This document shows positions 4,507 through 36,941 of a stretch of DNA of 64,000 nucleotides, in pieces; the stretch's first letter is position 1; each line of letters opens with the position of its first letter. The notes beneath the pieces were generated by a model. The model ran no database searches. It saw only the letters and a list, made by a program, of their open reading frames with translations, and was not told the origin of the DNA. The position numbers were made by a program, and so were the translations under genes. Source of the stretch: Nitrosopumilus sp. (GTDB lineage Archaea; Thermoproteota; Nitrososphaeria; Nitrososphaerales; Nitrosopumilaceae); NCBI GenBank assembly GCA_965197525.1, contig OZ240211.1, forward strand, positions 1,696,001 to 1,760,000. The letters run 5' to 3'.

Positions 4507-4581
4507 GGGCTCATAGTCCAGGTCGGTTATGACGTCGCCCTTACACGGCGAAGATCCGGGGTTCAAATCCCCGTGGGCCCA
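4507..4581 (+). tRNA. tRNA-Val(TAC)
   Basis: Acceptor GGGCTCA/TGGGCCC, anticodon arm TCGCC-CT TAC AC-GGCGA, T arm CGGGG TTCAAAT CCCCG. Confidence 0.95.
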
Positions 4582-4600
4582 CTCCCACTCTGGGTTCAAG

Positions 4601-4761: not shown

Positions 4762-4812
4762 GATTGCTCATAAAACAGTCGTTTATGGAATTTGTAATCC
4801 GGATGGATAGCC

Positions 4813-5901: not shown

Positions 5902-6061
5902 GTTTTTCTGAATTATTTTGCAGGTAGCTCAATCTCGAGTATTTTTGATTGGATATCTAATCTAAACACTAAATCGTCAAATGTTCTAGAATGTACATGT
6001 CTGCCCAAATCGTAACCGGATCAAAATAGGTTCGTACAAGGATTAGAACTCTGGCTTGATA

Positions 6062-6130
6062 CTATAATATCGTAGAATCGCCGCAGTTGACTGTTTGTAC
6101 ATTGTTGTGCCATTTTTTATGATATGATTC
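6062..6130 (-). pseudogene. 3'-terminal fragment of the MBL hydrolase, truncated by IS3
   Basis: Matches the last ~23 codons of 19088-20584 and ends at the IS3 terminal repeat. Confidence 0.75.
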
Positions 6131-17581: not shown

Positions 17582-17607
17582 GGGTTCAAATCCCCGTGGG
17601 CCCACTC
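17582..17607 (+). repeat. att-like duplication of tRNA-Val 3' end
   Basis: GGGTTCAAATCCCCGTGGGCCCACTC identical to 4559-4584 (26 bp). Confidence 0.9.
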
Positions 17608-17637
17608 TCATTTGGGTTCAAATCCTTTTTTGATGGT

Positions 17638-17783
17638 CTATAGGTTATTTTTGGTCAGTTTTATAGTAAAAACTGACGCATTCGGATGCTTTGCCACTTT
17701 GTTATGGGGTGAACGACTACCTTGTCTTCACTGCCCTCCTTTGTTATGGTCACAGGTCTATTTCCAATTGTTTCTTTTACCAT
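17638..17783 (-). pseudogene. small ORF remnant, second copy
   Basis: MVKETIGNRPVTITKEGSEDKVVVHPIT/KVAKHPNASVFTIKLTKNNL*; same frameshift as the copy at 4601-4761. Confidence 0.5.
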
Positions 17784-17834
17784 GATTGCTCATAAAACAG
17801 TCGTTTATAGAATTTGTAATTCGCATGGATGGCC

Positions 17835-18923
17835 TCACCTACACTGAAAATTCTTTATAACCATATACCCATGTGACTTGGCATTTTCATAATGCCTGTT
17901 GATGATCTTCTCAAATTTCTGATCGAGTCTAGTTAGTGATTTTTCTAATTTTGGTATCTCTGTTCGATAACTTTTGTTTCGATCAATCAGCTTGTTAATG
18001 TATTTTCTTGGCGGCAACGCTCCAAGTTTTCTGCAATTGCATTCCTTACATGCCAGAGTCAGATTCCAAATATCATCCTCTTCAATATAGTCAAATGGTA
18101 TCACGTGTTCTACCTCCGGCGTTGGCTTGTCGTATAACTGCTCTCCGCAGTAAAAACACTCTTTGAACAATGGGAACAGCATTTTACGATACGTTGTAAG
18201 GGAACCTCTCTTTGTGTTCCTGCCTTCAGTCTTGGCGATTATCTTTGGAAGGCCTACATTGAGCTTTTCCAGAAACCTTGCCCACTCTAAAATGACTGAT
18301 TTAAGAAGACATTGATTGTATCGCTTGAAAAATTCCCTGGCTCTGGGATTCAGATTTATCCCATGTTCCAAGTCAACAGATTTCTTGTTGCTGTGAAATG
18401 TTCTATCAATTTTATACTCAAAGAACAATCTGGCCTCGGTAGCCATGTTCACTTTAATCCTCTGAAATCTCCAGGTCACATTATGAAAACAGTGTTTTTT
18501 GATCCGCATTATGCATTTTCGGATTTTTTCAGGTTCTTTTTGGCGTATTTGCTTGAATGTCTGTGGATAGTATGCCTTTGTGAATTCTTTTTCTATAATT
18601 TTGACAATCATGGGCTTTTTTGTGGCTTGTGGAGCGTGCTTGATCTTTTTCTTGCATATCTGGGTCCAATAGTATTCTAAAAAGTATCCGGCAATAGTAT
18701 CAAAGCTGACATGCGTCTCTGTGCGCTCCCTGGAATAATCCAAAAGAAATCTTGCAAATGCAAACTTGTAGGTATTGTCTTTAGAACTACGACTGATTAT
18801 GTTGAAAAACACCTTTTCAAACTCATCATCAGAGATGTCATCAAACCTAATATCCTTGACCATGCTATCTTGTGATAAGATCGGTCGTATATGAAAATAT
18901 GGCAACGCAATGGCTACATCCAT
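17835..18923 (-). CDS. HNH endonuclease, copy 2
   Basis: 362 aa; 17 substitutions versus copy 1 by manual count; HNH/zinc motif intact. Confidence 0.85.
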   Translation of the reverse strand: MDVAIALPYFHIRPILSQDSMVKDIRFDDISDDEFEKVFFNIISRSSKDNTYKFAFARFLLDYSRERTETHVSFDTIAGYFLEYYWTQICKKKIKHAPQATKKPMIVKIIEKEFTKAYYPQTFKQIRQKEPEKIRKCIMRIKKHCFHNVTWRFQRIKVNMATEARLFFEYKIDRTFHSNKKSVDLEHGINLNPRAREFFKRYNQCLLKSVILEWARFLEKLNVGLPKIIAKTEGRNTKRGSLTTYRKMLFPLFKECFYCGEQLYDKPTPEVEHVIPFDYIEEDDIWNLTLACKECNCRKLGALPPRKYINKLIDRNKSYRTEIPKLEKSLTRLDQKFEKIINRHYENAKSHGYMVIKNFQCR

Positions 18924-19087
18924 GTCTTTCTAAATTATTTTGCAGACAACTCAATCTCGAGTATCTTTGATTGGTCATACTTGATCTGACAACTAAGATC
19001 ATCGCATGTTATAGAATATACATGTCTGCTACAAGCCGTAACCGGATCAAAATAGGTTCACATAAGGACTGGAATTCTGGCCTGATA

Positions 19088-20584
19088 CTATAATATCGTA
19101 GATTCGCCGTGGTTGACTGATTGTACATTGTTGTGCCATTTTTTATGGTATGATTCGTTTTCAAGGGAGGTATGAATTGGGATCAGTTTTTTTGCCTTTG
19201 TACCGTCAATTACACGCTTTATCTGTTGGCCGTCACCATGACCTGAGACATGCACCTGATTCCAGTCCCTCTCACTTGTAATCAATCCAAAGTGTTCAAG
19301 CCAGTTTTTGATCGTCTCTTGCCTGAATTCCATTTCTGCGTCAAACGGCTCCGTCAGTGACCTGATATAGCTAGAACCGTTGCTTGGTTTGATGTCTATT
19401 AACTCTTGTAGTTTGAAATCACTCAATGACAGCATTATCTCATCTTGTTTTTCAGATACGTCACGGTAGTCGATACTGTTGTCATATTCAAGAAAATCCC
19501 TTGCCCAACTACCATAATCCTCGCGTAAAAGTTTCTTGGTAAATCGATTTCTGTTCTTATCAACTAGTCCCCATTCGCCCTTTGGAATGTATATCCTGAT
19601 GTGTCTGTCATTAGGACTAGGGTATATCCCGTGCAAGTCAGCAGATTCGTCAAATAGTTTTAGCAGATATGCTTGCTTTAGATCTATTGCCAGATATCTG
19701 TCTGCAGCCTTTGCTGCAAGATAAAATGATTCAAGCCTGTCCAAATCTCGTATTGGATAGCCACACACAACGAGTTTTTTGGCATTACTTGCAATCTGGC
19801 TCACTTTCTCTTCTATGTCATACTCTGTCATGGAGGGATTCTGATCTATTCTGGTTCCCTCACACAATAACAGATCAAGTGATGCATCTGCACATTTGTC
19901 AACAAATCTTTCAGTATCTTCCTTACGCCTGCCATGAAATCGGAGATCTGCAGTATTTGCAATCATACCCTTTGATGTCTCCAAGAGAAAGCCATGAACT
20001 CCGGAGATCGAATGATCCACCGGCAACGGAGTCACCCTGATATCGCCAACGGAAAACTCTTTGTTACTTTCAAATACTTGTATGTTCCGAGGTATTTTAT
20101 TGCCTTTTTCTTTTGCCATCTTGCCTTTTGTAGGACCTCTCTTGATTTTATGAATCTGAAACTTTTCTGTCATCTCGATGTACTGTTCACCGACACCTGT
20201 ATCATCAAAGTTCTGCATGATTAGTCTTGATTCCTCTGAACAGTAAATTGGAATATCTTCTCTTAGATATTTTATGTATGCACAATGATCTACATGCGCA
20301 TGTGTTAGAAGAATCCCGTCGATCTCAGTATCTTCCCGTCCTCCTATTCCCATATGTCTTGCATAATCTCTCCTGTAGAGGCCTTTGATATTTGGCAAGA
20401 TTCCAAGCTCAATCATGTCGACTAGGCTGTTTGAGCCCCTGGCCTTCATGTATTCTGAAAAATATCTATTTTCTGCACTAAAACTCATGCCAAAATCCAT
20501 GAAAATTTTTGTATTTCTATCCTCTACTAGGAACTTGTTTCCACCAATATCTTTAACTCCCCCATGAAAGGTAATAGAGGTCAT
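19088..20584 (-). CDS. metallo-beta-lactamase fold hydrolase (RNase J / beta-CASP-like)
   Basis: FHGGVKDIGGN, DFG, LTHAHVDH, VDHS, TADLRFHG, EGT, HVSGH, LIPIHT motifs. Confidence 0.85.
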   Translation of the reverse strand: MTSITFHGGVKDIGGNKFLVEDRNTKIFMDFGMSFSAENRYFSEYMKARGSNSLVDMIELGILPNIKGLYRRDYARHMGIGGREDTEIDGILLTHAHVDHCAYIKYLREDIPIYCSEESRLIMQNFDDTGVGEQYIEMTEKFQIHKIKRGPTKGKMAKEKGNKIPRNIQVFESNKEFSVGDIRVTPLPVDHSISGVHGFLLETSKGMIANTADLRFHGRRKEDTERFVDKCADASLDLLLCEGTRIDQNPSMTEYDIEEKVSQIASNAKKLVVCGYPIRDLDRLESFYLAAKAADRYLAIDLKQAYLLKLFDESADLHGIYPSPNDRHIRIYIPKGEWGLVDKNRNRFTKKLLREDYGSWARDFLEYDNSIDYRDVSEKQDEIMLSLSDFKLQELIDIKPSNGSSYIRSLTEPFDAEMEFRQETIKNWLEHFGLITSERDWNQVHVSGHGDGQQIKRVIDGTKAKKLIPIHTSLENESYHKKWHNNVQSVNHGESTIL

Positions 20585-20934: not shown

Positions 20935-21696
20935 ATGTACATGTCTGCCCCAAACCGTAACCAGATCAAAATAGGGGCTAGAGTCTCAATTGAAACAAAA
21001 AAGAATCAGGGTACCGGTAAATTGACTGAAGGCACAGTAAAGACAATTCTAACTTCCTCTCAGATTCATCCTCATGGAATAAAGGTCAGCTTAGAAGGTG
21101 GTCAAATAGGTCGAGTAAAGCAGCTAGAGGATCAAAATCAGACTAGGGAAACTAACAAACCAATAGATTTGGACAAAATAGAGATACCAAAAACAGAAGA
21201 TGCAAGTAATGAGTTCAAAGAGTTCTACCAATATGACAAAAAAATACCGAATACAGATGACAAACAGGCAATAGGGGGAATAAAGCGTTCAGTACAGGAA
21301 CGATTTGCCACAGCAGTATGTTCCTTTGGTAATTCGTATGAGGGAGGATTTGTGTATCTGGGCATAAACTCTGATGGAGTTATAGTCGGATTGGAACAAG
21401 ATATGAAACTTGGAAAATTCTCAGATTATAGTGATTCATTTGCAAATCACATAGTAGACAAATTAGAGGATTTGTTAAAAGACAAGGTGTTTGTAACTAG
21501 TAAAATAAGGATAAAGTTTCGTCAGATTGAGAATAAAACAATATGTATAGTACATGTCTTGCCTGCAGATCGACCAATATATCTGCACACAAAATCAAAG
21601 ACGTTTTTTGTCAGAGGACCAGCACCCAAGGCAGTCAAATTTGACATGGATCAACAGTTCAAATATATCAAAGAACGATTTCCAAGATATGGTTGA
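20935..21696 (+). CDS. YwbE (DUF2196) - Schlafen/AlbA_2 fusion
   Basis: N-terminal NQGTGKLTEG...ILT...HPHGIKV...GRV (YwbE); C-terminal EFKE...AVCSFGNSYEGGFVYLGINSDG (AlbA_2). Confidence 0.75.
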   Translation: MYMSAPNRNQIKIGARVSIETKKNQGTGKLTEGTVKTILTSSQIHPHGIKVSLEGGQIGRVKQLEDQNQTRETNKPIDLDKIEIPKTEDASNEFKEFYQYDKKIPNTDDKQAIGGIKRSVQERFATAVCSFGNSYEGGFVYLGINSDGVIVGLEQDMKLGKFSDYSDSFANHIVDKLEDLLKDKVFVTSKIRIKFRQIENKTICIVHVLPADRPIYLHTKSKTFFVRGPAPKAVKFDMDQQFKYIKERFPRYG

Positions 21697-21705: not shown

Positions 21706-22662
21706 TTGACCAAGCTTTATCACAGTCCCATGTTTGATGAAATACGAGATTATTTTGAAAAAAGCAATCCAGATAATACAATTTACATTTTTGTACCATA
21801 CATCAAAACAACAGTATTAGAGAAGCTACTAGATGGTCTTCCCAATCCCAAAGTCATTGTCACAACTTGGAAGCCTAGAGATATTTTATTTGGTTCTTCT
21901 GAACTTGAACTGTATCCATATTGTCGTGATCAAAAAATCACATTGTATCTAAGCCCAAACATACACCTCAAGGTATACTCTGTGGAGTTGGAAGATGCCA
22001 TAATTGCAACCGGAAATGTGTCTAATCGAGGCCTTTTACCTAATGGAAACTATGAGGTTGGTGCAAACATTGAATCCCTCGATAATGATGATAGGTTGGT
22101 CTTTGGGAAGATACTCCATGAGGCAAGACTGGTAGATGATGTAATGTATGACAAGCTCACAGAATGGTATGAGAACAACAAGGTAGAGGCAGACAAGTAT
22201 CCTAGTCTGGAAGATATTGTGCCTCTGCCAGAAAAAGATGATTTTTCAGTGGCTGCATTGCCTATGACTCGTTCTGTAGATGAACTGGTATCGGGATACT
22301 TGAGGATTGTTGCAGGCAAGCGCCCATCTGAGGATTCTGAGATTGTCGCATGCGTGTTTCATGATATCGCAAATTATGATATATCTAAGGGACTATCAGA
22401 ATCTGAATTTATTGCAGAACTGACTCGAAGCTTTTTTGCACATCCGTTTATTCAAAGAATTGATGAATTTATTGCGCCAGAGGCATACTTTGGGAGAATA
22501 AAGGAATGGATTCAAGACAATTGCACTGATGTGCCTGTTCCAAGCAGACGAGAATTGACTGGAAACGTCCAAGTTTTATTGGAATGGTTTGAAAGGCTAG
22601 GAGATGGCAAATACAAGATAGATGTTCCAGGCAGACATTCACAAAGAATTAAAAAACTATAA
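21706..22662 (+). CDS. phospholipase D-family nuclease (single HKD-like motif)
   Basis: IHLKVY...AIIATGNVSNRGL...NYE; TTG start. Confidence 0.7.
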   Translation: MTKLYHSPMFDEIRDYFEKSNPDNTIYIFVPYIKTTVLEKLLDGLPNPKVIVTTWKPRDILFGSSELELYPYCRDQKITLYLSPNIHLKVYSVELEDAIIATGNVSNRGLLPNGNYEVGANIESLDNDDRLVFGKILHEARLVDDVMYDKLTEWYENNKVEADKYPSLEDIVPLPEKDDFSVAALPMTRSVDELVSGYLRIVAGKRPSEDSEIVACVFHDIANYDISKGLSESEFIAELTRSFFAHPFIQRIDEFIAPEAYFGRIKEWIQDNCTDVPVPSRRELTGNVQVLLEWFERLGDGKYKIDVPGRHSQRIKKL

Positions 22663-22679
22663 TCAAAACTCACTCAATA

Positions 22680-24299
22680 TCAAGTGTTCAGGTTTTTGTA
22701 TCTCCAAAGATCAGCGAAATATTCATCTGCAAGTTCTATTGACGGAAGTATGTCTAATATTCTGATCAACCTGAACTGTTCAGTACCGCCCATGCGCGGA
22801 CCGCGCATTCCGCGACCAATCATCTGCTGATGAAGCACTATGGATCTAGTGGGTCTAGCTATGAATACCACATCTATGTTGGGGGCATCAAAGCCAACTG
22901 AAAAAACATTAACATTGCATATGCATTTAATCACACCCTCTTTGAATTTTGATATGACATCACGTCTATACGCCATGGGTGTGTTCCCATCCACATGTGC
23001 CGCATTACCGCCCAACGCCAAAATTATGGCGCACATCAGCTTTGATTGTTTTAGATTGGGCGCAAAATATAATATTTGTTTGTTTTCAACTATCAACTCT
23101 TTCAATCGTTTGGCAATTGCGATATTTCTTATATTGTCCGCAGCTATCTCATCTAACAATGCCGGTGGAAGATCGTGATCATCGGCAAATCTTCTTCGTT
23201 GTTCCTGTGTAAGGATGAACTCTCTATTGGATTCAATCGTTTCAGGATCACAGTATGCAAGATACCCTTTTGATTGCAGATAGGATATGTTATCCATATC
23301 TCCAGAGTCTATCTCTATTATCTTATCGTTGAAATATTCACGTAATTTTGTGTTCTCTGGACTGTTCATTCCTCTTAGAGGTGTGGCAGTAAGGCCAACT
23401 ATTCTAGTGCCGTTTTCTTCAAGGCGCCGTATTACATTTTTGTGTGTACGTGCGATCACATTATGTGCCTCATCAGCCACCACAAGCTCAGGTTTGGGAA
23501 AATTACTGGAATCCAGCAAGTTATTCAATTTTTGATATGTGGCAACGATGAACGCATTAGGCTCGAAATTATTTGGATCATTCTTACCCCATACACGATA
23601 TACATGTAAATCGTCTTTGCCCAAATGTGACCAGATCTCTTGCATGGAAGTTATTGCCTGTTCGCATAACTCCTCACGGTCAGCAAGCCATACTACCTGT
23701 CTTTTTTCTCCTGCCTCTATGCCGTTGTTTAGAAAATTACTTACCATCTCCAAGGCAGTGCGTGTTTTGCCGGCACCGGTTGGCATTTTTATGATAAAAT
23801 GTACCCATGGATTCTCCACCAACCGCATTCCCTCGTAGAATACTTTACTTTGATACTCTTTTAACATTCGAAGTGGCTTGTTGGTAGGTATTGTGAATTC
23901 AGAAGTGCGATCCTGTTCTGGACTTGGAATTAGATTTTTGTCATACTCAAATTCTTCTATGAATGCTTGTGTTTCATTATTGCAACCCCATGCTAGTTTA
24001 GAAGCTTTCTCAATTGATTTTTCATATGCTTGATCATCTTGAGATGAAATAGGTATTCCGGTTCTCTGGAAAAATCTAAGACATTTCTTTTTATCCGCAT
24101 ATTTGAGAAGTTTTGCCCGAAATTCCGGTTTTTTGTAAGATGATATGTTTAGTGCATGATGAAGTTTGCCCAGCATATTTTTTGTCCCAATATCAAAATC
24201 TTCATTAGGGTTTATTTCCTTGAGAATAAAATTAAGCGTGTCCCAGTATTCTTTTAAAGAAAACTCTAATTCACTACGTGGTAATCTGTCATTTAACAC
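22680..24299 (-). CDS. SF2 DEAD/DEAH-box helicase (RadD/UvsW-like)
   Basis: MPTGAGKT, DEAH, GLTATP, VGFDAPNID, QMIGRGMRG. Confidence 0.9.
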   Translation of the reverse strand: MLNDRLPRSELEFSLKEYWDTLNFILKEINPNEDFDIGTKNMLGKLHHALNISSYKKPEFRAKLLKYADKKKCLRFFQRTGIPISSQDDQAYEKSIEKASKLAWGCNNETQAFIEEFEYDKNLIPSPEQDRTSEFTIPTNKPLRMLKEYQSKVFYEGMRLVENPWVHFIIKMPTGAGKTRTALEMVSNFLNNGIEAGEKRQVVWLADREELCEQAITSMQEIWSHLGKDDLHVYRVWGKNDPNNFEPNAFIVATYQKLNNLLDSSNFPKPELVVADEAHNVIARTHKNVIRRLEENGTRIVGLTATPLRGMNSPENTKLREYFNDKIIEIDSGDMDNISYLQSKGYLAYCDPETIESNREFILTQEQRRRFADDHDLPPALLDEIAADNIRNIAIAKRLKELIVENKQILYFAPNLKQSKLMCAIILALGGNAAHVDGNTPMAYRRDVISKFKEGVIKCICNVNVFSVGFDAPNIDVVFIARPTRSIVLHQQMIGRGMRGPRMGGTEQFRLIRILDILPSIELADEYFADLWRYKNLNT

Positions 24300-24309
24300 C
24301 CAAGTCCAC

Positions 24310-26088
24310 CTAATTCTTGTATGCTTTTCTTAGATGGTAACTCCATTTTACAAGATGTTCTTCCACAGTATTTCCTACGGATTGTGTACGGGTTAGATCA
24401 TCAAGATCATATTGGCCCTCAGCGTAGGCGTAGATGAGTCTGTCTATATCGGCCTTTAATTCTTTAGCGAGTTTTAACAGATCAGAATTTTGAGGATCAG
24501 CAGACAGGGCTTCTATTTCCTGGATTCTGCGATAAATCTCCACAAAAAATGGATGGCTCATATTATAATGGACTACTTTTTTGCCTACGTTGTCTAGCAC
24601 ATCTATGAATGGGCCGTCCGAGCGAGCCTTGTGATCGTGTATGATCTTATACGGCTTATCCGGATCCATTATCTCTGATACATATTTTTCTTGTTCTTCA
24701 GGATTATCAAAGAGTGTTTCTGCGTGTTGTTCTATATTGTCCTTGGCCTCTTCCGGAGATATCGTTGGCTGTAGCGGTGGACAAATTTCTGCAAGTTCTT
24801 TCTCGGTGCTGGTATGGCTTTGCAATGGTCCTGTTTCTGCTTCAGATTTCTTTTGATCCTCATCGGCCCAAACTTCTTCAAGCGCCTTTCTAAAATTGTT
24901 GATTATAGACGGTTGAAGTTTCTGTTGTAATATGTCTCTGAGTTCTTTAAGAGGTCTGGCGCCGATTTTTATATTCTTTACAGAGAACCAGTGATCTAAG
25001 ACCGGATCAAAATCTATCTCACATCCCCAAAACCTATCCGCTGGTTTTGTCGTCGGTGAAAATCTAGACATTGGACCATAATAGACCTCGCGGCCGTTTC
25101 TCAATATCGAAAACCCTTCATTTTCAAACACTCTTCTATCGTTATTAAATTTGCTACTTCCTCCATACCCCTTCAAATGTGCATTTTTTTCTCCTTTTCT
25201 CCAAGATTTAGGGAGCATGGATGTTCTGATTATGATCTTGCCTTTTTTCTCACCACTGCTAGGTGAATCTACAACATGTACCGGATGATCAAACACATGT
25301 TCAGGTTGGAGCGCTGCGCGGTCATCATCTGGAAATTTGGGATTTTTTGTAGCATAAAGTGGATCATGTGCGGTAACTGATACATTATTTGAACCATTAT
25401 CTATGAATATTTTCCGTAAATTGTTGTTTTTTATGGGCTTACCGTCTTTGATTATTTCTTCGCCTATGAATTTACGATAGATTCTGCCTAGACGATGTTT
25501 AAGCACATCTAGTTCAAATTCAGAATCAATTCGTTCAATCTTACTCCAAATTACTAGAGTACCATAGTCTCCCACCAGATCTTTGTATTCTGATGGAAGA
25601 TCTTTTTGCTCTACGGGATGCAGAAATGGATCTGCATCATTATCGATTCCACTGTTATCCAAAAATGTATATCTCCAATTCCCTTGTTTTTCTCTAGAAT
25701 ACACTTCAATTTTATCACATACATTGATTGCACCCATAGTCATTCGTGGATAGATTGATTGCACCCATAGTCATTAAACCACTCCAAACCTGCCTATTCC
25801 TTTACGATCATCGTATCTATTCGAATAGCCGATAGCTAGGCAATGTTGCAATGTATCAGAATCCATCCCGTGTCCGTCATCACCGACTGCTATACAAACC
25901 GGACGGGGCTTATGTTTGCCCTGCGGTGTACTCATCTTGAATTTGAGTCTAATCTCTTTTGCGTAAGCTTGAATCGAGTTATCAACTACTTCGTAGATTG
26001 CCGAATATGCATTAAAGTCGTTATTGCGAAGAGATTTTAGGGCGGCCCCAATACGTATGGGAGATATTTTTTCAGTACTCATTATCAT
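24310..26088 (-). pseudogene. GHKL (Hsp90/MORC-like) ATPase interrupted by a 33-bp insertion with two stops
   Basis: EVVDNS, DDGHGMD, GIGRFGV in 25774-26088; continues in frame into 24310-25764. Confidence 0.8.
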
Positions 26089-26112
26089 ACCCTCTGCATA
26101 CCCTTTTTTATA

Positions 26113-26952
26113 TTATAGGTGGCAGACAGTACAAGGTGTGGACTCGTCCTCCTCATCCAAGGCGTCTGCAAGCACATCAACTAGCGGCAGGTTCTTTCGT
26201 TTTGATTTGACTCTTTTGAGGTTCTCTGCCTGTCTGGCCATTATATCATCACGTCTTTCCAACAACTCGGTTAATGTCTCGCCTTCAGACCATGTATATT
26301 GCCGTCCCTTCATTCCACTTGATTTAAAATTCGCATCCCCTGCAACTCCTGCATCCTTGAGTATCTTTTGCTCGATTGCGACTGCACGCTTGAACAAATC
26401 AGGATGGTTGTCTGCAAGACCAACCCATTCAGATTTACGCTGAAAGAAGCAGAAATAACATCCGGAACGTGTCCGCCACTTGTAATAATCTGGCAGGTTG
26501 ATTCCTGCATCTTCTAGAATTTTTACTACACCCGCATGATCAATATCTGCATCAATGAATGGAAATACTGTCTTGATGTTGGGCTTGGTCGATATATATC
26601 CTGTCCTGTTTTTCTCATCTGCACGTATTGCCACATATGATATCACGTCATCATCACCTATCCAATCTTCTAGTGGTTTTATCTTCAACATGCTAGTACA
26701 CCACCTCATCTGTGGGGATGGCAAGGTGCCACGATATACTTCAAAATAGTGATCAAAACTTCGTGTAGAATTTAGTTTTTCAATTTTTTTGCCCAATACC
26801 ACCTCAAGCTTTGCAAGATATGCATATGTCTCTGGAAGTTCTGCACCAGTGTCACAAAAGAAATATTCCATGTCGGTAACTTTGTCTCTCATGTATACGG
26901 CAAGAGCACTAGAGTCTTTGCCACCAGAAATACCACAAACATGCCTTGGCAT
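26113..26952 (-). CDS. sspD: PAPS reductase-family protein (SspD-like)
   Basis: GISGGKDSS, CDTGAELPET, RWCT..LK, RSGCYFCFFQ; context with desulfurase, DUF4007 and ATPase. Confidence 0.75.
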   Translation of the reverse strand: MPRHVCGISGGKDSSALAVYMRDKVTDMEYFFCDTGAELPETYAYLAKLEVVLGKKIEKLNSTRSFDHYFEVYRGTLPSPQMRWCTSMLKIKPLEDWIGDDDVISYVAIRADEKNRTGYISTKPNIKTVFPFIDADIDHAGVVKILEDAGINLPDYYKWRTRSGCYFCFFQRKSEWVGLADNHPDLFKRAVAIEQKILKDAGVAGDANFKSSGMKGRQYTWSEGETLTELLERRDDIMARQAENLKRVKSKRKNLPLVDVLADALDEEDESTPCTVCHL

Positions 26953-27010
26953 GATACTAGAAATTTATTACATCATATAACTATTTAATATCAGACAATA
27001 ACTTGGAAGT

Positions 27011-27178
27011 TTATTTTATCTTGGCAGCTAGCGTGTCAAATTCCTTTTTTGAAACAGTGAGGCAGAACAATACCTTATCTGGCTTTTTGGCATTCTTTAC
27101 CATTGGATAGAATTTGATTACATATTTGCCGTCTTTTTTCGTGATATCGTATGGTCTATCGCCAATCTTGTCTCTCAT
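27011..27178 (-). CDS. 55-aa basic protein (below ORF-track cutoff)
   Basis: MRDKIGDRPYDITKKDGKYVIKFYPMVKNAKKPDKVLFCLTVSKKEFDTLAAKIK; homologous to two remnants next to the att sites. Confidence 0.6.
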   Translation of the reverse strand: MRDKIGDRPYDITKKDGKYVIKFYPMVKNAKKPDKVLFCLTVSKKEFDTLAAKIK

Positions 27179-27315
27179 GCGGTTTTTCAATATCCTGTGA
27201 TTTTATAGGTTTATCGGTAGTTTTTTCCCAAAATTCATTTGAAACTTAGATATTGTGCTTGGTAAATTGGGAATTCTACCAAAACATATTATACTTCTTT
27301 AGTGTAGTATATGTG

Positions 27316-27376
27316 CCTATATTCGAATCCTCTAGCCTAACATAGTTAGGGACCTAGGGGCTCATGTGAATATAGG
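27316..27376. ncRNA. candidate structured RNA / long hairpin 3' of DUF3800-like gene
   Basis: Nested stems CCTATATTC/GAATATAGG (9 bp), CCTCTAG/CTAGGGG (6 of 7), CCTAAC/GTTAGG (6 bp). Confidence 0.4.
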
Positions 27377-27381
27377 AGCTT

Positions 27382-27954
27382 TTATTTAAAAAAAGTCCGT
27401 AGTTCTTTTTCAAGATATTGTGTGATATCCATCGCAACCACGCCATCTGGTTCGAAACCTTTGTTATTTGACCAAGCAACCAAGTCAGATAACATGTGTG
27501 CATTTCCTTCTTTGGTATAACGCAAACCATTGTCTTTTGCAAAATTTTTACAGTCATAATCACATTGAAAATTGATCTCAGATAATGAAGTATTGTGTTT
27601 GTGTGTAAATTCTGTTATTTGATCTCTTATTCGATGCAATATTAAATAATTATATGCATGAAAAAGTTTTCCTATTGAAATCGAGTAATGCTTCTTCCTT
27701 AAATTATTTTTGAGCTTATCAATTATTGTCTTCTTGTCAATTCTAATACAAAATGCAATAGACTCATTATTATTAAATTTTAATTTTGAAACAAGCGTCT
27801 TACGATTATATTTGTATGTATTTTGAAGAACTTGTTCATATTCCAAATGTTTAATTATAGAATTAATATTCTCGCTTGTGCCAATAACGATTCCTAGATA
27901 TTTGTAATTTCCAATTTGAGTATTTCCAGAAACATCCATTCCTCCAATAATCAT
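27382..27954 (-). CDS. DUF3800-like protein
   Basis: N-terminal GMDVSGN...YLGIV and C-terminal MLSDLVAW, matching the DxSG...ADxxA pattern. Confidence 0.5.
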   Translation of the reverse strand: MIIGGMDVSGNTQIGNYKYLGIVIGTSENINSIIKHLEYEQVLQNTYKYNRKTLVSKLKFNNNESIAFCIRIDKKTIIDKLKNNLRKKHYSISIGKLFHAYNYLILHRIRDQITEFTHKHNTSLSEINFQCDYDCKNFAKDNGLRYTKEGNAHMLSDLVAWSNNKGFEPDGVVAMDITQYLEKELRTFFK

Positions 27955-27966
27955 AGTTTACTCCGT

Positions 27967-30900
27967 TTATTTTTCACTTAATATTGCCACAAGTGCATCG
28001 ACATCTTTATCTGTGAATCCGTTTTTCTTCATGTCTACAAGTATTTTGTTTACTATTTTTTCCATCTTCTTTTTTTGTTCTGGCTTCAAAGATACTATGT
28101 TATTATGTTCTCTACCATCAGCATGAGTGACGGTAATCTGATACGATGGTTTTACAAAATTGTCAGACACATCTGAAAAATTCATCGATGCAAGTCTTTT
28201 GAATCTTCTAGATACCTCAGCTAGATTATTCTCAAACAGTTCACACTGATCATCTTTCCAAGATTCTGGAGGAACATCTGTAAGGCTCAAAGCAATGTAG
28301 CTTATCCAATCTTCTTCCCTATCTATGGTATCTGAAGACACTACAGTCAAAAACACCTTCATTTTATGATCAGTTACATTTTTCAGCATGACTGAAGCGG
28401 CCTGTGAAACCTTTTTTCTGTCGTCTATTCCCGTGTAATCAAACAGCATTTTTTTAATATCCTGAAGCATTTTAGAATAGGCGTTTTGAAGATTAGTTTT
28501 TGATTTTGTTAGTGTTTTTGAAAACTTTGTGATCTCTGATTTTGATTTATCTGAGTTAAAAGAATCAAATCCCAAGGCCTTTGGAAGTGATTCAAACAGT
28601 AACGTGTCTGGCTCTCTTGCCTCAAGTATGGTATTTCTTACGGCAATAGTGTTTTTGTCTAGATTTTTGGTCTGTCTTGCATATGGTACAAGAACAGAGG
28701 TAATTCGCACCAGATGAGATACAACATCTAGTACACTGCCTTCTGAATTTATATCAAAATCTTTGATTACTGTACTTAGTAGTTGTTTTTTTGATGCAGT
28801 GCTTGTAAAATATTTCAACTCAAAATGGCTTGGATTTTTTATCATTCGCTCTACGATCTCTATTCCAAGTTTTGGTGAATACGTTCCATGCTCGTACAAT
28901 GCGATGTTGTTTTTGTAAATCAGTAAGATCGTAGTGATGATGATATCAATTGTACCTGTTTTCATGCCATATGGCGGCATCTTGCACAGTTGGTGTATCG
29001 AATGCAATGATACACGTTTTTTGGATTTTTTCAACATCTTCAATATTTTATCCCATACAGGATACAGAGTATTATCTGATGAGGGTGACTTTAGTTTCCA
29101 ATCAAGATTAGAATCAGCAACATGAATATTGTTTTTTACAAAAATTGCTTCATATACTGCACGATCAGGCCCGTAACCATCTATTCCAAAGCGTGCTTTA
29201 TTGGTATCAATTATCATGTTCTCTAGTAATTGTCGTTTTGCAGCAGTGCCCTGTGATGAAAGAATTGTACGGTTTATCATCTCATTGTGTATCTTGGGCG
29301 TATCTGGATATGCATCATCACTTACGGTGGATGCTATTGCACTTGGCGTTCCATTTAACATTTTGTTGTCATATGACCACCTTGCAGTACTGCCGTGCGT
29401 ATTGCCAAATTCTCTGTCCAGAATTATTTCTGCATCAGATAATCTCTCCTCTAGTTCTTTGTGTGATACCCAGTCTGATATTACATCCTGGTCATTTTCC
29501 AAAATGTCTCGAATTGCCATAACGTTAATTGCTTCACGGAGTAGTATTGACGTATCTTCTGGTTTTACTGTAATCAGAGGCTTGTTGCATATTACATTTG
29601 TCGAACTGCCTGTATCATACAGAATCGCACCATCATAGCTGTCATCTAGTATGATCTCAGAAGATGTTGCAAATCGTCTCTCAAAAAGTCTCATGGTACC
29701 ATACTTTATGTTGTGTTTTGCAGCCACCACAGGTTCTAGTTCAATGACATTTTGGAGCATTTGGGTCAACGAGGATTTCGAATATCGTTTCTTGTACATG
29801 TCAAGCTTTGCAGCTATGTCGATATCGGTACCATGCCATATGCGGTACTCGTCTGCATATTTTCTGTATGTAATGATGGATTTGTTTTGTAGTTTCTTTA
29901 GAATTTGTTTTGATTTTGCACCGATTACATAATCTATGATTTGTTGAGATGCTCTAAGGTATCCCGATCTTGCAATCAAATTAAGAATTCCAATTGTCTT
30001 CAATGTCTTAATTTCGATTTTGTCTAATCCATACGAGTCACGAATTATGGTCTCAATCTCCATGAGACGAGTTATGTTTGCAGAGCTAGAATTAATCATG
30101 CTTGTACCTGATATGAAGTAATCATACAGAGTATCCAATCCAATTGTGGGAGGTTTGTCATCTTGCCAGTAATTTTCATCGATAAATGTTGCAACCGTGT
30201 TCTTGCCACCGTCTGAGATAAAGGACAACAAAGTTCGCTCATGTTGTCCGTATCTTGAACACAGCTCAGGTAGGACTTCAAGCGCTAATGGCTCTAGAGG
30301 ATAACACGATGCAATCAGATCTGGATCGAATCCTCCTTCTATGCCAAGGTTCTGCAATAATTTTGCCTTGCTTTTGGCCCAATTTCTCACTATTCGGCGA
30401 CGGCTATTATTAGGGGTTAGCTTGATGGTGTTCGAGATTAATTGTCTTGTCTGATTTGGTGAATTTGCAAATGGGATGTCTTCGAATCTGCCCTGAATCT
30501 TTGCCCATTCTTGCTTTCTTGCATGGGATGCGCCTACGGCATATTCCTCAAACGCCATGTGCTGCAGCGTTATAATTGATAGAGGAATTTTTCTTCCCGG
30601 CCCGGACATTTCTGCTAGCTCTTGCAGCAAGAACAGATCGCTTTCCTGTGTTTCATCTGTGGTAAAATATTCTATATTTTTGCCAAATTCATCAAGGATT
30701 ATAACTACAGGAGCAATCTTGCACATATCTACAATAATTTCAGTTATTTCCGAAACAGAAGGCACTGTTTTCTTTAGATTTCTAATGTGTTTTTTTAGAT
30801 GTCGTGCCGTCGAAAAGTGCTTTGTTGTGTATTTGTCAAAATACTTTGTTGCACCATCATCTAATGCCTTTAATATGGTTGCCGTAATTGGTTCGCGTCT

Positions 30901-31293
30901 TGCAGTTATTGCACATACAAGCATTCCCTTCTGGTGAATGTTTGCTTTTTCTCGTGCATCTAAAAGTATGGTAGTAACATTAAATGACTCGCGTTTAAGA
31001 ACATTATGCGCCGTCTTCCATTCCGATTTATGTCGTGCTACAAGAAGGCCTTTGAGAAATGTTGCCATGGTTGACTTGCCTGAACCATACGGTCCTGTAA
31101 TTGAGAGCATTCGTCCATCCTTTGCACCTGAAAGTCCAGCTGAAAAACGCTCAACTATCTCCAGAGTACTTGCACTAGGAAGATAGTTCTTTAATGCGGT
31201 GATATCATCATGTTCAATATTTGTAGAATTGTATTCCTTTGGAGGGATTGTAACTAGTTTTGAGAGTGGCTTGCGTTTTTGAACTGTTTTCAT
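27967..31293 (-). CDS. sspC: large P-loop ATPase (SspC/BrxC-like)
   Basis: 1108 aa; Walker A GPYGSGKS, Walker B IILDEFGK; 1-bp overlap with DUF4007 gene. Confidence 0.75.
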   Translation of the reverse strand: MKTVQKRKPLSKLVTIPPKEYNSTNIEHDDITALKNYLPSASTLEIVERFSAGLSGAKDGRMLSITGPYGSGKSTMATFLKGLLVARHKSEWKTAHNVLKRESFNVTTILLDAREKANIHQKGMLVCAITARREPITATILKALDDGATKYFDKYTTKHFSTARHLKKHIRNLKKTVPSVSEITEIIVDMCKIAPVVIILDEFGKNIEYFTTDETQESDLFLLQELAEMSGPGRKIPLSIITLQHMAFEEYAVGASHARKQEWAKIQGRFEDIPFANSPNQTRQLISNTIKLTPNNSRRRIVRNWAKSKAKLLQNLGIEGGFDPDLIASCYPLEPLALEVLPELCSRYGQHERTLLSFISDGGKNTVATFIDENYWQDDKPPTIGLDTLYDYFISGTSMINSSSANITRLMEIETIIRDSYGLDKIEIKTLKTIGILNLIARSGYLRASQQIIDYVIGAKSKQILKKLQNKSIITYRKYADEYRIWHGTDIDIAAKLDMYKKRYSKSSLTQMLQNVIELEPVVAAKHNIKYGTMRLFERRFATSSEIILDDSYDGAILYDTGSSTNVICNKPLITVKPEDTSILLREAINVMAIRDILENDQDVISDWVSHKELEERLSDAEIILDREFGNTHGSTARWSYDNKMLNGTPSAIASTVSDDAYPDTPKIHNEMINRTILSSQGTAAKRQLLENMIIDTNKARFGIDGYGPDRAVYEAIFVKNNIHVADSNLDWKLKSPSSDNTLYPVWDKILKMLKKSKKRVSLHSIHQLCKMPPYGMKTGTIDIIITTILLIYKNNIALYEHGTYSPKLGIEIVERMIKNPSHFELKYFTSTASKKQLLSTVIKDFDINSEGSVLDVVSHLVRITSVLVPYARQTKNLDKNTIAVRNTILEAREPDTLLFESLPKALGFDSFNSDKSKSEITKFSKTLTKSKTNLQNAYSKMLQDIKKMLFDYTGIDDRKKVSQAASVMLKNVTDHKMKVFLTVVSSDTIDREEDWISYIALSLTDVPPESWKDDQCELFENNLAEVSRRFKRLASMNFSDVSDNFVKPSYQITVTHADGREHNNIVSLKPEQKKKMEKIVNKILVDMKKNGFTDKDVDALVAILSEK

Positions 31294-32312
31294 TATGTTA
31301 TCTGCTCCTGTATCATTGCAACGGGCATGATCTTTTTGTCATATGCCAAAGAAAGTATTTCTTTTGATGCTTCTTCAATAGAATCAAACACCAAGTGTTG
31401 CGCACCGTTGATATTTTGTAGTTTGATTGAATCTGAGATATCACATGCGTTTGATAGCAAATCCAAAAGGTCATTTTCATTTATCTTAAAGATGTTGCCT
31501 ATACTGCCTGCCTCCGTTGCCAATCTGCTAAGAGACACATTCTTGGACTTTATGTCAGAACGAGCTATAAAATCAAGGCATGCAAAGGCTGTAATCAGTG
31601 GAGATACTCCATATTTTTTGCCAAATACAAACCTCATAGTATCTCGTGAACTCTGTTTTATCATGTGGAGCTGTCTTAACGGGCAGTCAAGATAATCTTC
31701 CATGGTAAGTTTGTTCTGCCTAGTAGTGTATGTATGTACAAATACATCAATATCTTTTTTTATGGATTTTGCATGTGCAATAACGCAAGTGCCATCTGCA
31801 TGCCGGGCTTGGCTAGCTCAAAACTGCACGCTGTCGTGGATTGTTTGTGTTTTCCATTCGGCAATGTTTGTAATGCGAGTAGTAATTGACTCGGTCACAT
31901 CCTCAATCTTTACGTTTGTTGCATGAAAATCATTCATTATCATCCACCATACCGGAACTTTACATGGTGGTGCAAAAAGTAGCCAGTGTAATAACCATAA
32001 AGTATCTGGCTTTTCAAGATATGGATCAAGTCCATATTTGTCATCAAATATTATATCGCCTATTTCTGTGCTGACCATAGTCGTGTTTGCACCAGAACCA
32101 CATGCTTCCATTATCTTGTTTGCACGTCCCCAGAATTTTATTGCTCGAACCATGTTTTTTCCAACACCTAGTTTTACTGTGGTATCCTCACGTTTGAATA
32201 TTGAAGGATCGTCTTGTATCTGATCATATGCTTTTTTGAGCCATCCGTATCTGAGATGAAACGATTCGTGGTTTGCAAATGTAGGTTTTGGTATGGCCTC
32301 TGTAACTAACAT
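31293..32312 (-). pseudogene. sspB: DUF4007 protein (SspB-like) interrupted by an in-frame TGA within an apparent 69-bp insertion
   Basis: FANHESFHLRYGWLKK, LGVGKNMVRAIKFW, DPYLE..TLWLLHWLL; both ORF halves in the same frame. Confidence 0.8.
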
Positions 32313-33473
32313 CTATCTCAGATTCTCCGTAATCTCTGCCTCTTTTTTTCGTACAAACTCTGCTGCTTGTGCAATGTCTATTGCAGCAGTTTCAATGTCT
32401 TTCATCTCCGTATGTCTTCCAACAGATACGCGGATTGATTCGTCTGCTGCAGTACGATCTAGTCCCATTGCGGTAAGTACATGTGATGGTTCCATCGTAT
32501 TAGAAGAGCATGCACTTCCTGATGAGATTTCAATATGTTTAGTATTAACAATCACTGCGTCTGATTGTGCACCGTGTATTCTTATACTTGATGTATTTGG
32601 AAGGCGTTCTGTATTCTCGCCGTTTATCGTTACATTTGAAATGAGAGATTTTATTCTTGATTCTAAATTATCGCGCAGTACCAACAGTTTTGCTGACTCT
32701 TTTGGAATTATCTCGTATGCAATCTGGCATGCCTTGCCGAATCCCACGATTCCAGAAACATTTTGTGTGCCACTGCGCAGGCCTTTTTCCTGTCCTCCCC
32801 CATAAATCAACGGAGTCATGCTTTTCCGTATATGACGTGATGCCACAAATGCGCCTACTCCCTTGGGACCATACATCTTGTGGCTACTGCAGGTGGAAAT
32901 ATCTATTCCAAGGTCATGAATGTCGACTGGAATCTTACCTGCAGCTTGTGTAATATCGCTGTGAAGTATGGCGCCTGCATCATGGACAATCTTGGATATC
33001 TCCTTTATGGGGTTTATCACTCCGGTCTCGCTGTTTGCAAGCATTATGGATACCACGTCAGTTTCTGGCTCTATCTTTTCGCTTAATACATCAAGGTCTA
33101 TTACTCCATCAGATTTTACGGGAATTACAAATATTTCTGATCCGAATCGTTTCATAAAGTTGCATGGCTCAATGACAGACTTGTGTTCTGTAGCACCATA
33201 TAATATGCGGTGATTGTTTTCTATGTTCAGTCCAATTCCGGCTATTGCCATGTTGTTGGCCTCTGTAGCTCCGGATGTAAAGATGACGTCCTCCTTGTCC
33301 GCACCAATTAATATCGCTAACTTCTCTCTTGCGTCATCTATCAAATCCATTGCGTCCATTCCTGAGTCATGTGTGCTAGATGGGTTTCCAAATTTTTTTT
33401 TGAACACTGGAATCATTTCATCAATTACTCTTTGGTCTACTGGAGTTGTGGAATTGTAATCTAGATATACCAT
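32313..33473 (-). CDS. sspA: cysteine desulfurase (IscS/SspA-like)
   Basis: YLDYNSTTP, FTSGATEANN, HKMYGPKG, SSGSACSS; start re-placed at ATG 33473; stop abuts sspB start. Confidence 0.85.
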   Translation of the reverse strand: MVYLDYNSTTPVDQRVIDEMIPVFKKKFGNPSSTHDSGMDAMDLIDDAREKLAILIGADKEDVIFTSGATEANNMAIAGIGLNIENNHRILYGATEHKSVIEPCNFMKRFGSEIFVIPVKSDGVIDLDVLSEKIEPETDVVSIMLANSETGVINPIKEISKIVHDAGAILHSDITQAAGKIPVDIHDLGIDISTCSSHKMYGPKGVGAFVASRHIRKSMTPLIYGGGQEKGLRSGTQNVSGIVGFGKACQIAYEIIPKESAKLLVLRDNLESRIKSLISNVTINGENTERLPNTSSIRIHGAQSDAVIVNTKHIEISSGSACSSNTMEPSHVLTAMGLDRTAADESIRVSVGRHTEMKDIETAAIDIAQAAEFVRKKEAEITENLR

Positions 33474-35295: not shown

Positions 35296-35389
35296 TGATA
35301 CCAAGTTACAGTTGTAGTATGCAATACTCAAACAGTCACTTGCATTTAGCTTCTAAAAGTTTGTAATCAATCACATAACATTTGTGGGA

Positions 35390-36805
35390 TCCCGAAAGTA
35401 GTTCGCCCCTCTTCAAAACTTGGAGATGTTTGCATGTATGATGTTCTAGAGTGTTGTATAACTCTCTTGCGCTAAATTCCACTATACAATTCATGAATTT
35501 TATTCATTTCCACTCCACGCATGGCAACTATTCAAAAAATTATGTATAGTATCCACTAAGGATAACATCTGTTTTGATATCATAATGTTACTCTACACTG
35601 TACTCTTGACCTGTTTGACTATCTGTCACCGTCTTGCCAGCAGGTGGCATCTTTCTCTTAAATGCCTGTACCGGAGTCTCTAGATTGTCCCAGTCAAGTG
35701 ACATATGCGGTCTGTTGTAGTTGTACCATTCCATGAACCGTTCCACGGGATCCTTTGCAGATGCGGTGTAAAACGGTCCTCCTACACTAGAGTTCTCTGT
35801 TGTACCACGTCGAGTCTTGCCAGCTGAGGCACCTTCAAAGTGGCCTAGTTTGCGCTGTATCTCTCCGTGCAGACGTTCTAGTTTACCATTTGTCTGTGGA
35901 TGTCGTACACGTGCCAATATGTGTTTGATGTCAAGTTCCACCAGTCTTTGTTCAAATTTGGAGGCACCCTTCTTCTTGGCCTCAGACTCTGTGGCATAGA
36001 ACTGGGTACCGCGATCTGTCAGGATTGATGCAGGCTTGCCGTGATTTTTTATGGCCTCATCAAGTACCTTTAGGGCGTTTTCTGTAGTTGCCTCTGCAAA
36101 TACCCCAAAACCAGTCACAAAACGTGAAGCGTCATCCTGGTAACATATGAGCCATCTGCCATCGTCAAGCTGTTTGAAATCAGTATGCCACAGGGAATTG
36201 GAGTAAGTTCGTTCCCACCTAACCCACTTGCGCCTCTTGCTCTTGTTTGGACTGGCATCTACATAATCTGCATCTTTCAATACTTTGTGTATAAAGTTGT
36301 GCGCAATATACATTCCTACAGATGATCTTATGACGCGCTCCAAGGTTGCAGCTCCTCGAATCTCGTTTGCTATTGCTGAGAGAATCACAGAGTGTTCTAG
36401 TCGTCCGGGCGCACTCTTTTTGGGTCTTCCCATTGGGGCAGGATACACTATCTTGTCTGCATCTTTGTATCTCTTGTGCAGCTTTTGAACCCATCTGACA
36501 GAGACGTTCATCTTTGCTGCAATCTCTCTGTTACTGGCAGTATTCTTGCGTTTTTCTCTGATAATCCATTCCACTTTGGACAAGTCAAGTTTTTTCATTA
36601 CTCGTACTCTCCGTCTTCCTATATAACGCCACACAGTAGAGCGTCTCCATCTGCGGACCCACACACCGCTGTTTCCAGTAATGGACAAGTTGACTGTGTC
36701 TTTCATAGATTTTACATGGGATGCCATGCCGCTGAAAAAATCGGTCATGGAACACGCCCACCTAGGCTATGAGCCTGATGTGAGGGGTGAACTACTTTCG
36801 GGACA
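35390..36805 (-). mobile_element. IS481-family insertion sequence
   Basis: 20-bp inverted repeats TCCCGAAAGTAGTTCGCCCC (35390-35409) / GGGGTGAACTACTTTCGGGA(CA) (36784-36805), one mismatch. Confidence 0.8.
35588..36748 (-). CDS. IS481-family DDE transposase (likely start ATG 36598)
   Basis: WHTDFKQ, DDASRF, ILTDRGTQF, HPQTNGKLER, YNYNRPHMSL. Confidence 0.85.
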   Translation of the reverse strand: MTDFFSGMASHVKSMKDTVNLSITGNSGVWVRRWRRSTVWRYIGRRRVRVMKKLDLSKVEWIIREKRKNTASNREIAAKMNVSVRWVQKLHKRYKDADKIVYPAPMGRPKKSAPGRLEHSVILSAIANEIRGAATLERVIRSSVGMYIAHNFIHKVLKDADYVDASPNKSKRRKWVRWERTYSNSLWHTDFKQLDDGRWLICYQDDASRFVTGFGVFAEATTENALKVLDEAIKNHGKPASILTDRGTQFYATESEAKKKGASKFEQRLVELDIKHILARVRHPQTNGKLERLHGEIQRKLGHFEGASAGKTRRGTTENSSVGGPFYTASAKDPVERFMEWYNYNRPHMSLDWDNLETPVQAFKRKMPPAGKTVTDSQTGQEYSVE

Positions 36806-36941
36806 ATACACAATCACATAACATTTAATCATCTTATATTGCATCAAATCTCTGATTATCTTGCTTGTTACGTGCTCTGTATTCATTCCAAAACAATAAT
36901 TATTCCTAATACGCCTGTTATCCTGCTATTATTATTATTGG

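Follow-up and report, generated by a model that had tools for sequence, protein, structure and literature searches.

A 64,000-nucleotide stretch of the genome of Nitrosopumilus sp. (NCBI GenBank assembly GCA_965197525.1, contig OZ240211.1, positions 1,696,001 to 1,760,000 of the forward strand), hereafter the window and cited by its own positions, carries the sspABCD genes of a putative phosphorothioate (PT) writer, directly followed by genes for a GHKL ATPase and an SF2 helicase and faced by genes for an AlbA_2 protein and a PLD nuclease. We see an even chance that this region is a two-part PT defense locus, in which an Ssp writer is combined with an effector module. The module, consisting of the GHKL ATPase, the helicase, the PLD nuclease, and the AlbA_2 protein, is probably a new restriction arm for PT immunity, and the wider proposition, on which our judgment is likewise balanced, is that GHKL-(PC4)-helicase-PLD/winged-helix-(AlbA_2) forms a widespread, writer-agnostic restriction module for both single-strand (Ssp) and double-strand (Dnd) PT in archaea and bacteria. 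The effector sets of PT defense known to date are DndFGH, PbeABCD, SspE, and SspFGH, and to our knowledge no characterized effector reads both PT types generically. An initial annotation of this DNA, made from the letters and open reading frames (ORFs), had proposed a new modification-effector pairing here, which the domain identities and co-localization described below support and widen.

Genes were called from the ORF listing together with HMM scans (Pfam, PADLOC, and NCBIfam), and the genome is a single 2.21-Mb contig that is 98.99% complete. Transcription on the minus strand follows the order sspA, sspB, sspC, a 190-aa ORF, a 55-aa ORF, sspD, GHKL ATPase, and SF2 helicase, and this series is faced by a convergent plus-strand pair, the DUF2196/AlbA_2 gene and then the PLD gene. 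The gene set listed initially (desulfurase, DUF4007 protein, 1108-aa ATPase, PAPS reductase, GHKL ATPase, helicase, and convergent PLD) was recovered in place, mostly with very strong scores. The first gene, sspA (32313-33473, minus strand), encodes a cysteine desulfurase, the sulfur donor (PADLOC SspA 6.2e-135, DndA 3.7e-134; Aminotran_5 2.8e-80); its ORF is open up to 33692, homology begins only at residue 75, and SspA relatives are 386-391 aa long. The DUF4007 DNA-recognition subunit is encoded by sspB (31293-32312, minus), which was detected in two pieces (DUF4007 6.9e-48 and 9.6e-20; PADLOC SspB 1.6e-53 and 1.6e-23), read through the one in-frame stop (TGA) present in the assembly, and aligned to intact relatives. 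The 1108-aa BrxC/ORC-like ATPase is encoded by sspC (27967-31293, minus; PADLOC SspC 1.6e-296, BrxC 4.8e-99), and a PAPS-reductase-type ATP pyrophosphatase by sspD (26113-26952, minus; PADLOC SspD 5.6e-109, PAPS_reduct 3.7e-10). SspA, SspB (DUF4007), SspC, and SspD are thereby all recognized by HMM, the intact form of SspB being taken from read contigs; by gene content the window holds a canonical Ssp writer, and the PT mark itself is predicted. No second PT system was found in the genome; one further PAPS_reduct match lies above the family cut-off, a 254-aa open frame (172.7 bits) that is taken to be a housekeeping sulfate-assimilation enzyme, and a third lies below it. The closest relatives of the genome's proteins come from Nitrosopumilus and Cenarchaeum metagenome-assembled genomes, and a sponge metagenome contains a relative that is 95-99% similar.

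The effector genes continue this series with operon-like spacing, the GHKL gene starting 24 nt past sspD and the helicase gene 10 nt past the GHKL gene. The MORC-like GHKL ATPase (24310-26088, minus; about 580 aa when intact; HATPase_c_3 4e-19) lies in two pieces in the assembly, split by TAA-TGA, is 91% identical to the intact 581-aa relative P0001, and carries the Bergerat-fold motifs. MORC2, MORC3, and MORC4 are the sole matches of its profile in the PDB, and its predicted model resembles the GHKL-plus-transducer modules of Hsp90, MORC, and GyrB, aligning over 410-480 columns with MORC2/3/4 and the GyrB 43-kDa modules, which points to an S5-type transducer. The helicase (22680-24299, minus; 539 aa) matches ResIII (3.5e-22), Helicase_C (4e-14), and DEAD; its motifs I, II (DEAH), and VI are intact with invariant motif residues, and an N-terminal region of approximately 140 aa has an unknown fold. 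RadD is its best match in the PDB (2.4e-41), followed by SauUSI (2.6e-26), and in PADLOC its core hits the helicase portion of PbeA (1.5e-20) as well as type IV REase (2.8e-17).

The convergent PLD (HKD) nuclease gene (21706-22662, plus) encodes 318 aa, of which residues 1 to approximately 150 form the PLD domain and residues approximately 175 to 318 a C-terminal tandem winged-helix domain. The protein's own PLDc_2 score is weak (E 0.0098) and its relatives pass the PLDc_2 cut-off; residues H87, K89, N104, N115, and E117 are invariant across 33 homologues. In the predicted model (pLDDT 94), residues 1-150 are similar to the PLD nucleases SauUSI (Z 17.5), BfiI (14.8), and Nuc (14.4), and the C-terminal domain (175-318) aligns over approximately 131-135 residues with 3BHW (uncharacterized), N.BspD6I, BrxA, SspB, and the FokI recognition modules (Z 6.3-8.1). 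On the basis of this model we assign the protein a PLD nuclease domain and a reader fold of the tandem winged-helix type, with nuclease activity and DNA reading both predicted. A prediction of the helicase-PLD complex gave no answer (score 0.00) and speaks neither for nor against binding. Additionally, a gene missing from the initial annotation (20935-21696, plus) encodes a 253-aa protein with DUF2196 (4.8e-24) and Schlafen/AlbA_2 (SLFN_AlbA_2, 1.6e-11) domains; it runs in the same direction as the PLD gene, ends 9 nt ahead of it, and adjoins the PLD gene in loci L001-L003, L005, L008, L012-L014, L016, L035, L048, L050, and L052 as well. Neither the full-length GHKL protein nor the PLD protein nor the PC4 protein of related loci matches a named family in PADLOC, Pfam, or NCBIfam.

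The association of the module with PT writing is apparent from its distribution. The contexts of GHKL homologues were read, and 80 loci were then taken from species-representative genomes, for which ORFs were called and clustered and the clusters named; 50 loci are fully flanked (at least 8 kb on both sides), 37 with the helicase and 13 without it. PT genes lie within 10 kb in 36 of the 37 fully flanked helicase loci (Ssp in 26, Dnd/Pbe-type in 11, one locus having both), whereas GHKL paralogues without a helicase have PT genes nearby in just 2 of 13; a PLD/HKD gene is present in 30 of the 37. The common layout is SspB-SspC-SspD-GHKL-(PC4)-helicase-PLD-(AlbA_2), and elsewhere the same module stands beside DndB-C-D-E(-A), a repeated co-localization with two unrelated PT writers. 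The pairing with ssp genes proposed at first therefore stands, amended by a pairing with Dnd writers. This layout was found in Nitrosopumilaceae, Poribacteria, Bacteroidota, Planctomycetota, Pseudomonadota, Bacillota, Zixibacteria, Woesearchaeota, and others, so that the locus is archaeal, as had been stated, but the module is not specific to archaea. The module comprises three to five genes, the PC4 gene being common in bacteria and the AlbA_2 gene frequent. The PC4 (single-strand DNA-binding) gene encodes approximately 210 aa and lies between the GHKL and helicase genes in most bacterial versions and in one archaeal version (for example, at 11644-12312 in L029 and 11684-12307 in L050). A distant GHKL subfamily without a helicase (L036, L038, L042, L063, L065, L074, L075, L080, and L082) is followed by a protein of approximately 125 aa of unknown family, and in the Nostoc loci among these (L036, L038, and L042) a PD-T4-6-like kinase lies upstream.

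The same association was found at the level of whole genomes. When 301 evenly sampled genomes of the order were surveyed for SspC and GHKL homologues, each was found in 12 and both in 10, the GHKL homologue thus occurring in 10 of the 12 SspC-positive genomes against 2 of the 289 SspC-negative ones; where both lie on one contig, they are always 3-11 kb apart. These counts are given without a P value, because related genomes are not independent. Co-occurrence with sspBCD in other genomes, on which the proposed pairing had been staked, is thus borne out at both levels. Across well-supported branches of the GHKL tree the partner type changes between Ssp and Dnd at least six times, which ties the module to PT writers or to the mark rather than to one writer lineage, and its recurrence in two domains of life together with this re-pairing suggests that it may read the PT mark, or its absence, generically. 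In the same tree, locus L014 of Candidatus Poribacteria, a bacterial sponge symbiont, nests inside the Nitrosopumilaceae/Cenarchaeum clade with 100/100 support, and this nesting suggests that the whole Ssp-plus-module locus may have been transferred between archaea and bacteria that live as symbionts in one kind of host.

The layout would also accommodate a role in modification itself, with the ATPase and helicase loading or moving the writer complex or repairing the nicks left by sulfur insertion; co-transcription of these genes with sspD is predicted from their arrangement, and a PC4 single-strand binder would fit single-strand PT chemistry. However, SspABCD alone is reported to give PT modification (PMC9646914), the cloned iscS-sspBCD genes used as a source of PT in PMC8092258 had no such partners, and most sspBCD clusters have no such module. 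Furthermore, the PLD protein, with its reader domain and its conserved catalytic residues of a nuclease, has the typical features of an effector, and the module also serves Dnd writers, whose machinery differs. We regard an accessory function as very unlikely.

In the two-part defense locus that we favor, SspA would supply sulfur, SspB would recognize DNA, SspC would act as the ATPase, and SspD would be the PAPS-reductase-type enzyme, with two lineage-specific small proteins accompanying this writer. The helicase and the PLD protein would together constitute a split ATP-dependent restriction enzyme of the SauUSI/PbeA type, with the helicase as the translocating part. DNA and its PT status would be read by the winged-helix domain of the PLD protein, perhaps assisted by AlbA_2 and, in bacteria, by the single-strand binder PC4. 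The GHKL ATPase may dimerize on DNA and, acting as a clamp or switch, license the cut. We infer that these proteins form a complex, that PT is a protective mark, and that the nuclease acts on foreign DNA: PT-marked host DNA would be spared and unmarked incoming DNA nicked or cut, as DndFGH and SspFGH do.

The sign of PT dependence is the weakest step in this scheme, as PT may protect or may activate, as in SspE. The main rival to a protective role is accordingly a PT-sensing module, switched on by host PT to nick incoming DNA or block its replication and, without the writer, inert rather than toxic. SspE acts in this way according to PMC8092258 and PMC9646914. The module also coexists with GmrSD/SspE-like genes in L012, L013, L015, and L052, and PT loci can therefore stack effectors of different logic. 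In contrast, helicase-plus-nuclease types (I/III, SauUSI, and PbeA), as well as DndFGH and SspFGH, usually attack DNA without the host mark, and the module lacks a DUF262-type PT-sensing NTPase domain. An SspE-like, PT-activated mode is on this balance unlikely.

Several observations weigh against the two-part reading with its protective mark. The evidence is at the level of genes, so that both the function of the module and the PT mark in this organism are predictions. The PC4 gene is found in none of the Nitrosopumilaceae versions, including that of the window. The winged-helix domain reaches SspB, BrxA, and FokI at middling Z only (6.3-8.1), and a profile comparison of the PLD protein with SspB by hhalign showed no similarity (probability 0.2); we accordingly describe the domain as a tandem winged helix resembling those of FokI, BrxA, and SspB in fold and do not call it an SspB homologue. 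Both sspB and the GHKL gene carry stop-containing insertions as assembled, which would make this copy a dead one should they prove real and fixed. Finally, the fully flanked locus L018 has the GHKL-helicase pair with no PT genes near it, and a linked writer may therefore not be strictly needed by the module.

Locus L018 would suit an independent system, that is, a SauUSI-like type IV or MORC-type restriction-modification (R-M)-like defense that shares islands with PT writers and makes no use of PT. SauUSI-type enzymes act alone on modified DNA, and the window is a defense-rich island with HNH genes, insertion sequence (IS) copies, and a variable slot. Yet 36 of 37 helicase loci adjoin PT genes, as against 2 of 13 for the helicase-less GHKL paralogues, and the genes follow directly on sspD in a conserved order and in the same direction, in different phyla and with both types of writer, an arrangement much tighter than ordinary island clustering. 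We therefore hold independence from PT to be quite unlikely.

The two insertions were delimited by comparison with relatives and with contigs of public runs. In sspB, 75 nt (31772-31846, minus; located by blastn against L002) replace 6 nt of the relatives and read contigs, a net gain of 69 nt that is in frame and holds the TGA. Pieces of this insertion match exactly, over 41 and 23 nt, at 1927665-1927705 and 1928161-1928183 of the genome contig (G000:C1), within the sole full copy of a DDE transposase gene approximately 200 kb away (G000:C1:1926900-1928259). Insertion of an IS followed by deletion is unlikely as the origin, as the retained pieces derive from inside the transposase ORF and not from the IS ends. 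In the GHKL gene, a 33-nt in-frame insertion (25746-25778, minus) interrupts the GxxGxG box with TAA and TGA and consists of a 22-nt copy of the following sequence plus filler. Both insertions are also found in the whole-genome copy of the locus. Contigs of three public runs (X1, X2, and X3; two samples of one study) skip both and show zero other differences over approximately 8 kb, with GGCTAG joining the two sides in sspB. Without the insertions, the ATPase reads ...GRFGVGMTMG... and SspB reads ...EWKTPSPKSIKKD... The best-matching runs contain 0.98 of the sampled words, which equals the remainder after the words of the insertions are removed. The GHKL insertion occurs in none of the listed run contigs, and the inserted sspB letters match among these only one contig of 734 nt, covering 31771-31811, which presumably represents the transposase gene.

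These contigs, insertion-free and otherwise identical, indicate that the strain also has intact alleles. The insertions represent assembly errors, minority or sample-specific alleles, or recent templated repair scars; the contigs cannot decide between an assembly error and a minority or sample-specific allele, and joint decay of writer and effector is not used here as an argument. Recoding or read-through of the stops, as with selenocysteine or pyrrolysine, was rejected, since the inserted DNA in which the stops sit is missing from relatives and read contigs, and an intron or intein was rejected because DNA contigs without the insertions exist. It might be supposed that the locus is a dead relic in this genome, with sspB and the GHKL gene both pseudogenes, given that the window and the whole-genome copy have the stop-containing insertions in both genes. 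The three runs without them argue otherwise, as do all the other genes, which are intact with conserved motifs, and we judge a relic to be rather unlikely.

Two small genes and a variable slot lie between sspC and sspD, where the initial annotation had noted an insert. The interruption is present, but it consists of two conserved small ORFs (190 and 55 aa) and no foreign DNA, as judged by tblastn in related clusters. The 190-aa ORF (27382-27954, minus), of unknown family and without a match in Pfam, PADLOC, or NCBIfam, is kept between sspC and sspD in Nitrosopumilaceae Ssp clusters, with 38-50% identity at the same position in L011, L012, L013, and L015 (tblastn). The 55-aa ORF (27011-27178, minus) belongs to no known family and has no NCBIfam match; it is kept upstream of sspD, with 73-89% identity in L011, L012, L013, and L004, and upstream of dndB in related Dnd clusters, with 38-59% identity in L005, L016, L019, and L020 (tblastn in both cases). 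Copies lie at 545-697, 1075-1227, and 2276-2425 in L005, at 20477-20626 in L016, and at 497-646 in L019. This ORF may encode a small regulator common to the Ssp and Dnd PT systems of Nitrosopumilaceae. The gap between the small ORFs and sspD (26953-27010) is a variable slot that in the window has only about 26-60 bp and no gene; in the relative L012 (7142-9132) it holds a 593-aa GmrSD-type (DUF262/DUF1524) gene on the opposite strand, and in L011 (7508-9068) an unrelated 366-aa ORF.

Other features of the window lie outside the PT genes. A 1.58-kb repeat, 92% identical between its copies at 4556-6130 and 17579-19156, carries a 362-aa HNH-domain ORF and may be a mobile HNH element; one copy lies approximately 2 kb from the module. 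An IS of approximately 1.43 kb (35382-36810) with a 386-aa rve-type integrase lies 2 kb upstream of sspA and has at least three more copies in the genome (92-98% identical), one of them directly beside the transposase gene that is the donor of the sspB insertion. Imperfect tandem repeats at 56043-57776, with offsets that are multiples of approximately 72 nt, lie inside an 857-aa ORF (55527-58100, plus), which probably encodes a repetitive surface protein; the GC content of the array is approximately 0.50, against a genome average of approximately 0.39.

The module bears on a recognized gap, as no known effector accompanies 83.9% of sspBCD clusters, and the authors of that survey asked about further restriction partners (PMC8092258). 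If the proposed function is correct, the module explains part of this approximately 84%, and a prokaryotic MORC-type ATPase gains a concrete role in epigenetic reading. A MORC-like ATPase tied to a defined DNA mark would also bear on how eukaryotic MORCs entered epigenetic silencing. SspFGH is not protected by Dnd-type PT (PMC8092258). In the literature searched, no paper links a GHKL/helicase/PLD or MORC-type module to phosphorothioation; papers on Dnd, BREX, and Tiamat are silent on this pairing, and in PMC3506569 MORC appears solely in a reference title. Cultured carriers exist, namely Roseivirga seohaensis SW-152 (locus L027) and Nitrincola alkalisediminis JCM 19317 (locus L040), and the function is therefore directly testable.

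Comparison with the known PT effectors places the module apart from each of them. The writer families are the same four as in SspABCD-SspE, but SspE is a DUF262 (+DUF1524) protein encoded with sspBCD, whereas the cluster in the window has the GHKL, SF2 helicase, and PLD candidates. The statement that DUF262, PglZ, and BrxL genes are not visible holds for the cluster: no DUF262 gene occurs in it, the GmrSD protein of relatives finds nothing in the window or genome by tblastn, the sole PF03235 (DUF262) match in the genome lies at 582 kb, approximately 1.1 Mb from the cluster, and PglZ (PF08665) and BrxL (PF13337) have no match in this 98.99%-complete genome. The further claim that the trio stands in place of SspE applies to the window but not to its close relatives, in which a GmrSD-type gene in the sspC-sspD slot accompanies the module. 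The GmrSD proteins of these relatives are shorter than SspE, score best with HEC-06/Orf5 in PADLOC, and match SspE in its N-terminal part only. SspFGH is comparable as a multi-gene effector beside sspBCD that can coexist with SspE and is reported to damage non-PT DNA. By the description in PMC8092258, however, nothing beyond a Walker A motif and an FtsK-like C-terminus can be recognized in SspF, SspG, and SspH, which sets them apart from GHKL, SF2, and PLD proteins; the neighboring ORFs have no FtsK-like domain, and the trio has no match to a PADLOC Ssp effector, the presence of SspF/G/H models in the PADLOC copy being unconfirmed.

PbeABCD likewise combines a PLD (HKD) nuclease and an SF2 helicase beside PT writers in archaea and bacteria, and the helicase core of the window matches the PbeA HMMs (TIGR04095 only weakly). 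PbeA has PLD and helicase in one polypeptide, whereas in the window they are separate genes on opposite strands, the helicase covering PbeA positions 248-602 of 672 only. PbeC (CxC ABC ATPase), PbeD (DndE-like), DndD, and DndE have no match among the ORFs of the cluster, and the same library recognized them in other loci; PbeB, which together with PbeC and PbeD is a defining component of the system, is absent as well. Their place, that of PbeB/C/D, is occupied by the MORC-like GHKL ATPase (with PC4 and AlbA_2), and this module, unlike PbeABCD, also pairs with Ssp. The HMM comparison called for at the outset thus does not resolve the trio into known SspFGH or Pbe components, and only the helicase core resembles PbeA. 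As regards BREX type 4 (BrxP/BrxC/PglZ/BrxL), SspC is similar to BrxC, SspD to BrxP, and SspB is a DUF4007 protein, but the genome has neither PglZ nor BrxL, and SspD and SspB are separate genes. MzaB shares a distantly similar N-terminal GHKL domain (1e-9 to 1e-17; sacsin-type domain 1e-6), of which just the first approximately 170 residues match (33-61 bits against a cut-off of 850), and its partners differ. TmtA of Tiamat has no match in PADLOC, and the Tiamat preprint does not mention PT. Judged from these sequence comparisons, the module is neither SspE, SspFGH, PbeABCD, nor BREX type 4.

Two further systems are nearer in architecture. SauUSI (PDB 7CLG) ranks first among the structural matches of the PLD domain (rmsd 2.0 over 144 residues) and has the nuclease-motor-reader logic in common with the module. 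It is one polypeptide whose SRA-like reader recognizes modified cytosine, and it attacks modified DNA, whereas in the window the functions are spread over separate genes linked to PT writers, and reading would fall to a tandem winged helix. In 2008 an R-M-like role was predicted for operons that join a MORC-like ATPase to an SFII helicase and a nuclease (Iyer, Abhiman and Aravind, PMC2292703). They encode a GHKL+S5 ATPase beside a Rad25/ResIII-type helicase, together with a nuclease of the HKD or another type, and both the ATPase and its helicase and nuclease partners are present in the window. Those operons pair with DNA methylases, whereas the partner here is a PT writer, and a scan of ORFs from 17835 to 40024 found no methyltransferase. 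Dnd, PAPS reductase, and cysteine desulfurase have 0 occurrences in PMC2292703, and that paper describes neither the PT link nor the PC4 and AlbA_2 partners nor a PLD protein bearing a reader. The generic class, together with methylases, had accordingly been predicted already, and what our comparison supports as new is the link of a MORC-like ATPase-helicase-nuclease module to PT writers. The closest relatives of this module are a split SauUSI/PbeA-like PLD-helicase and a MORC-type ATPase.

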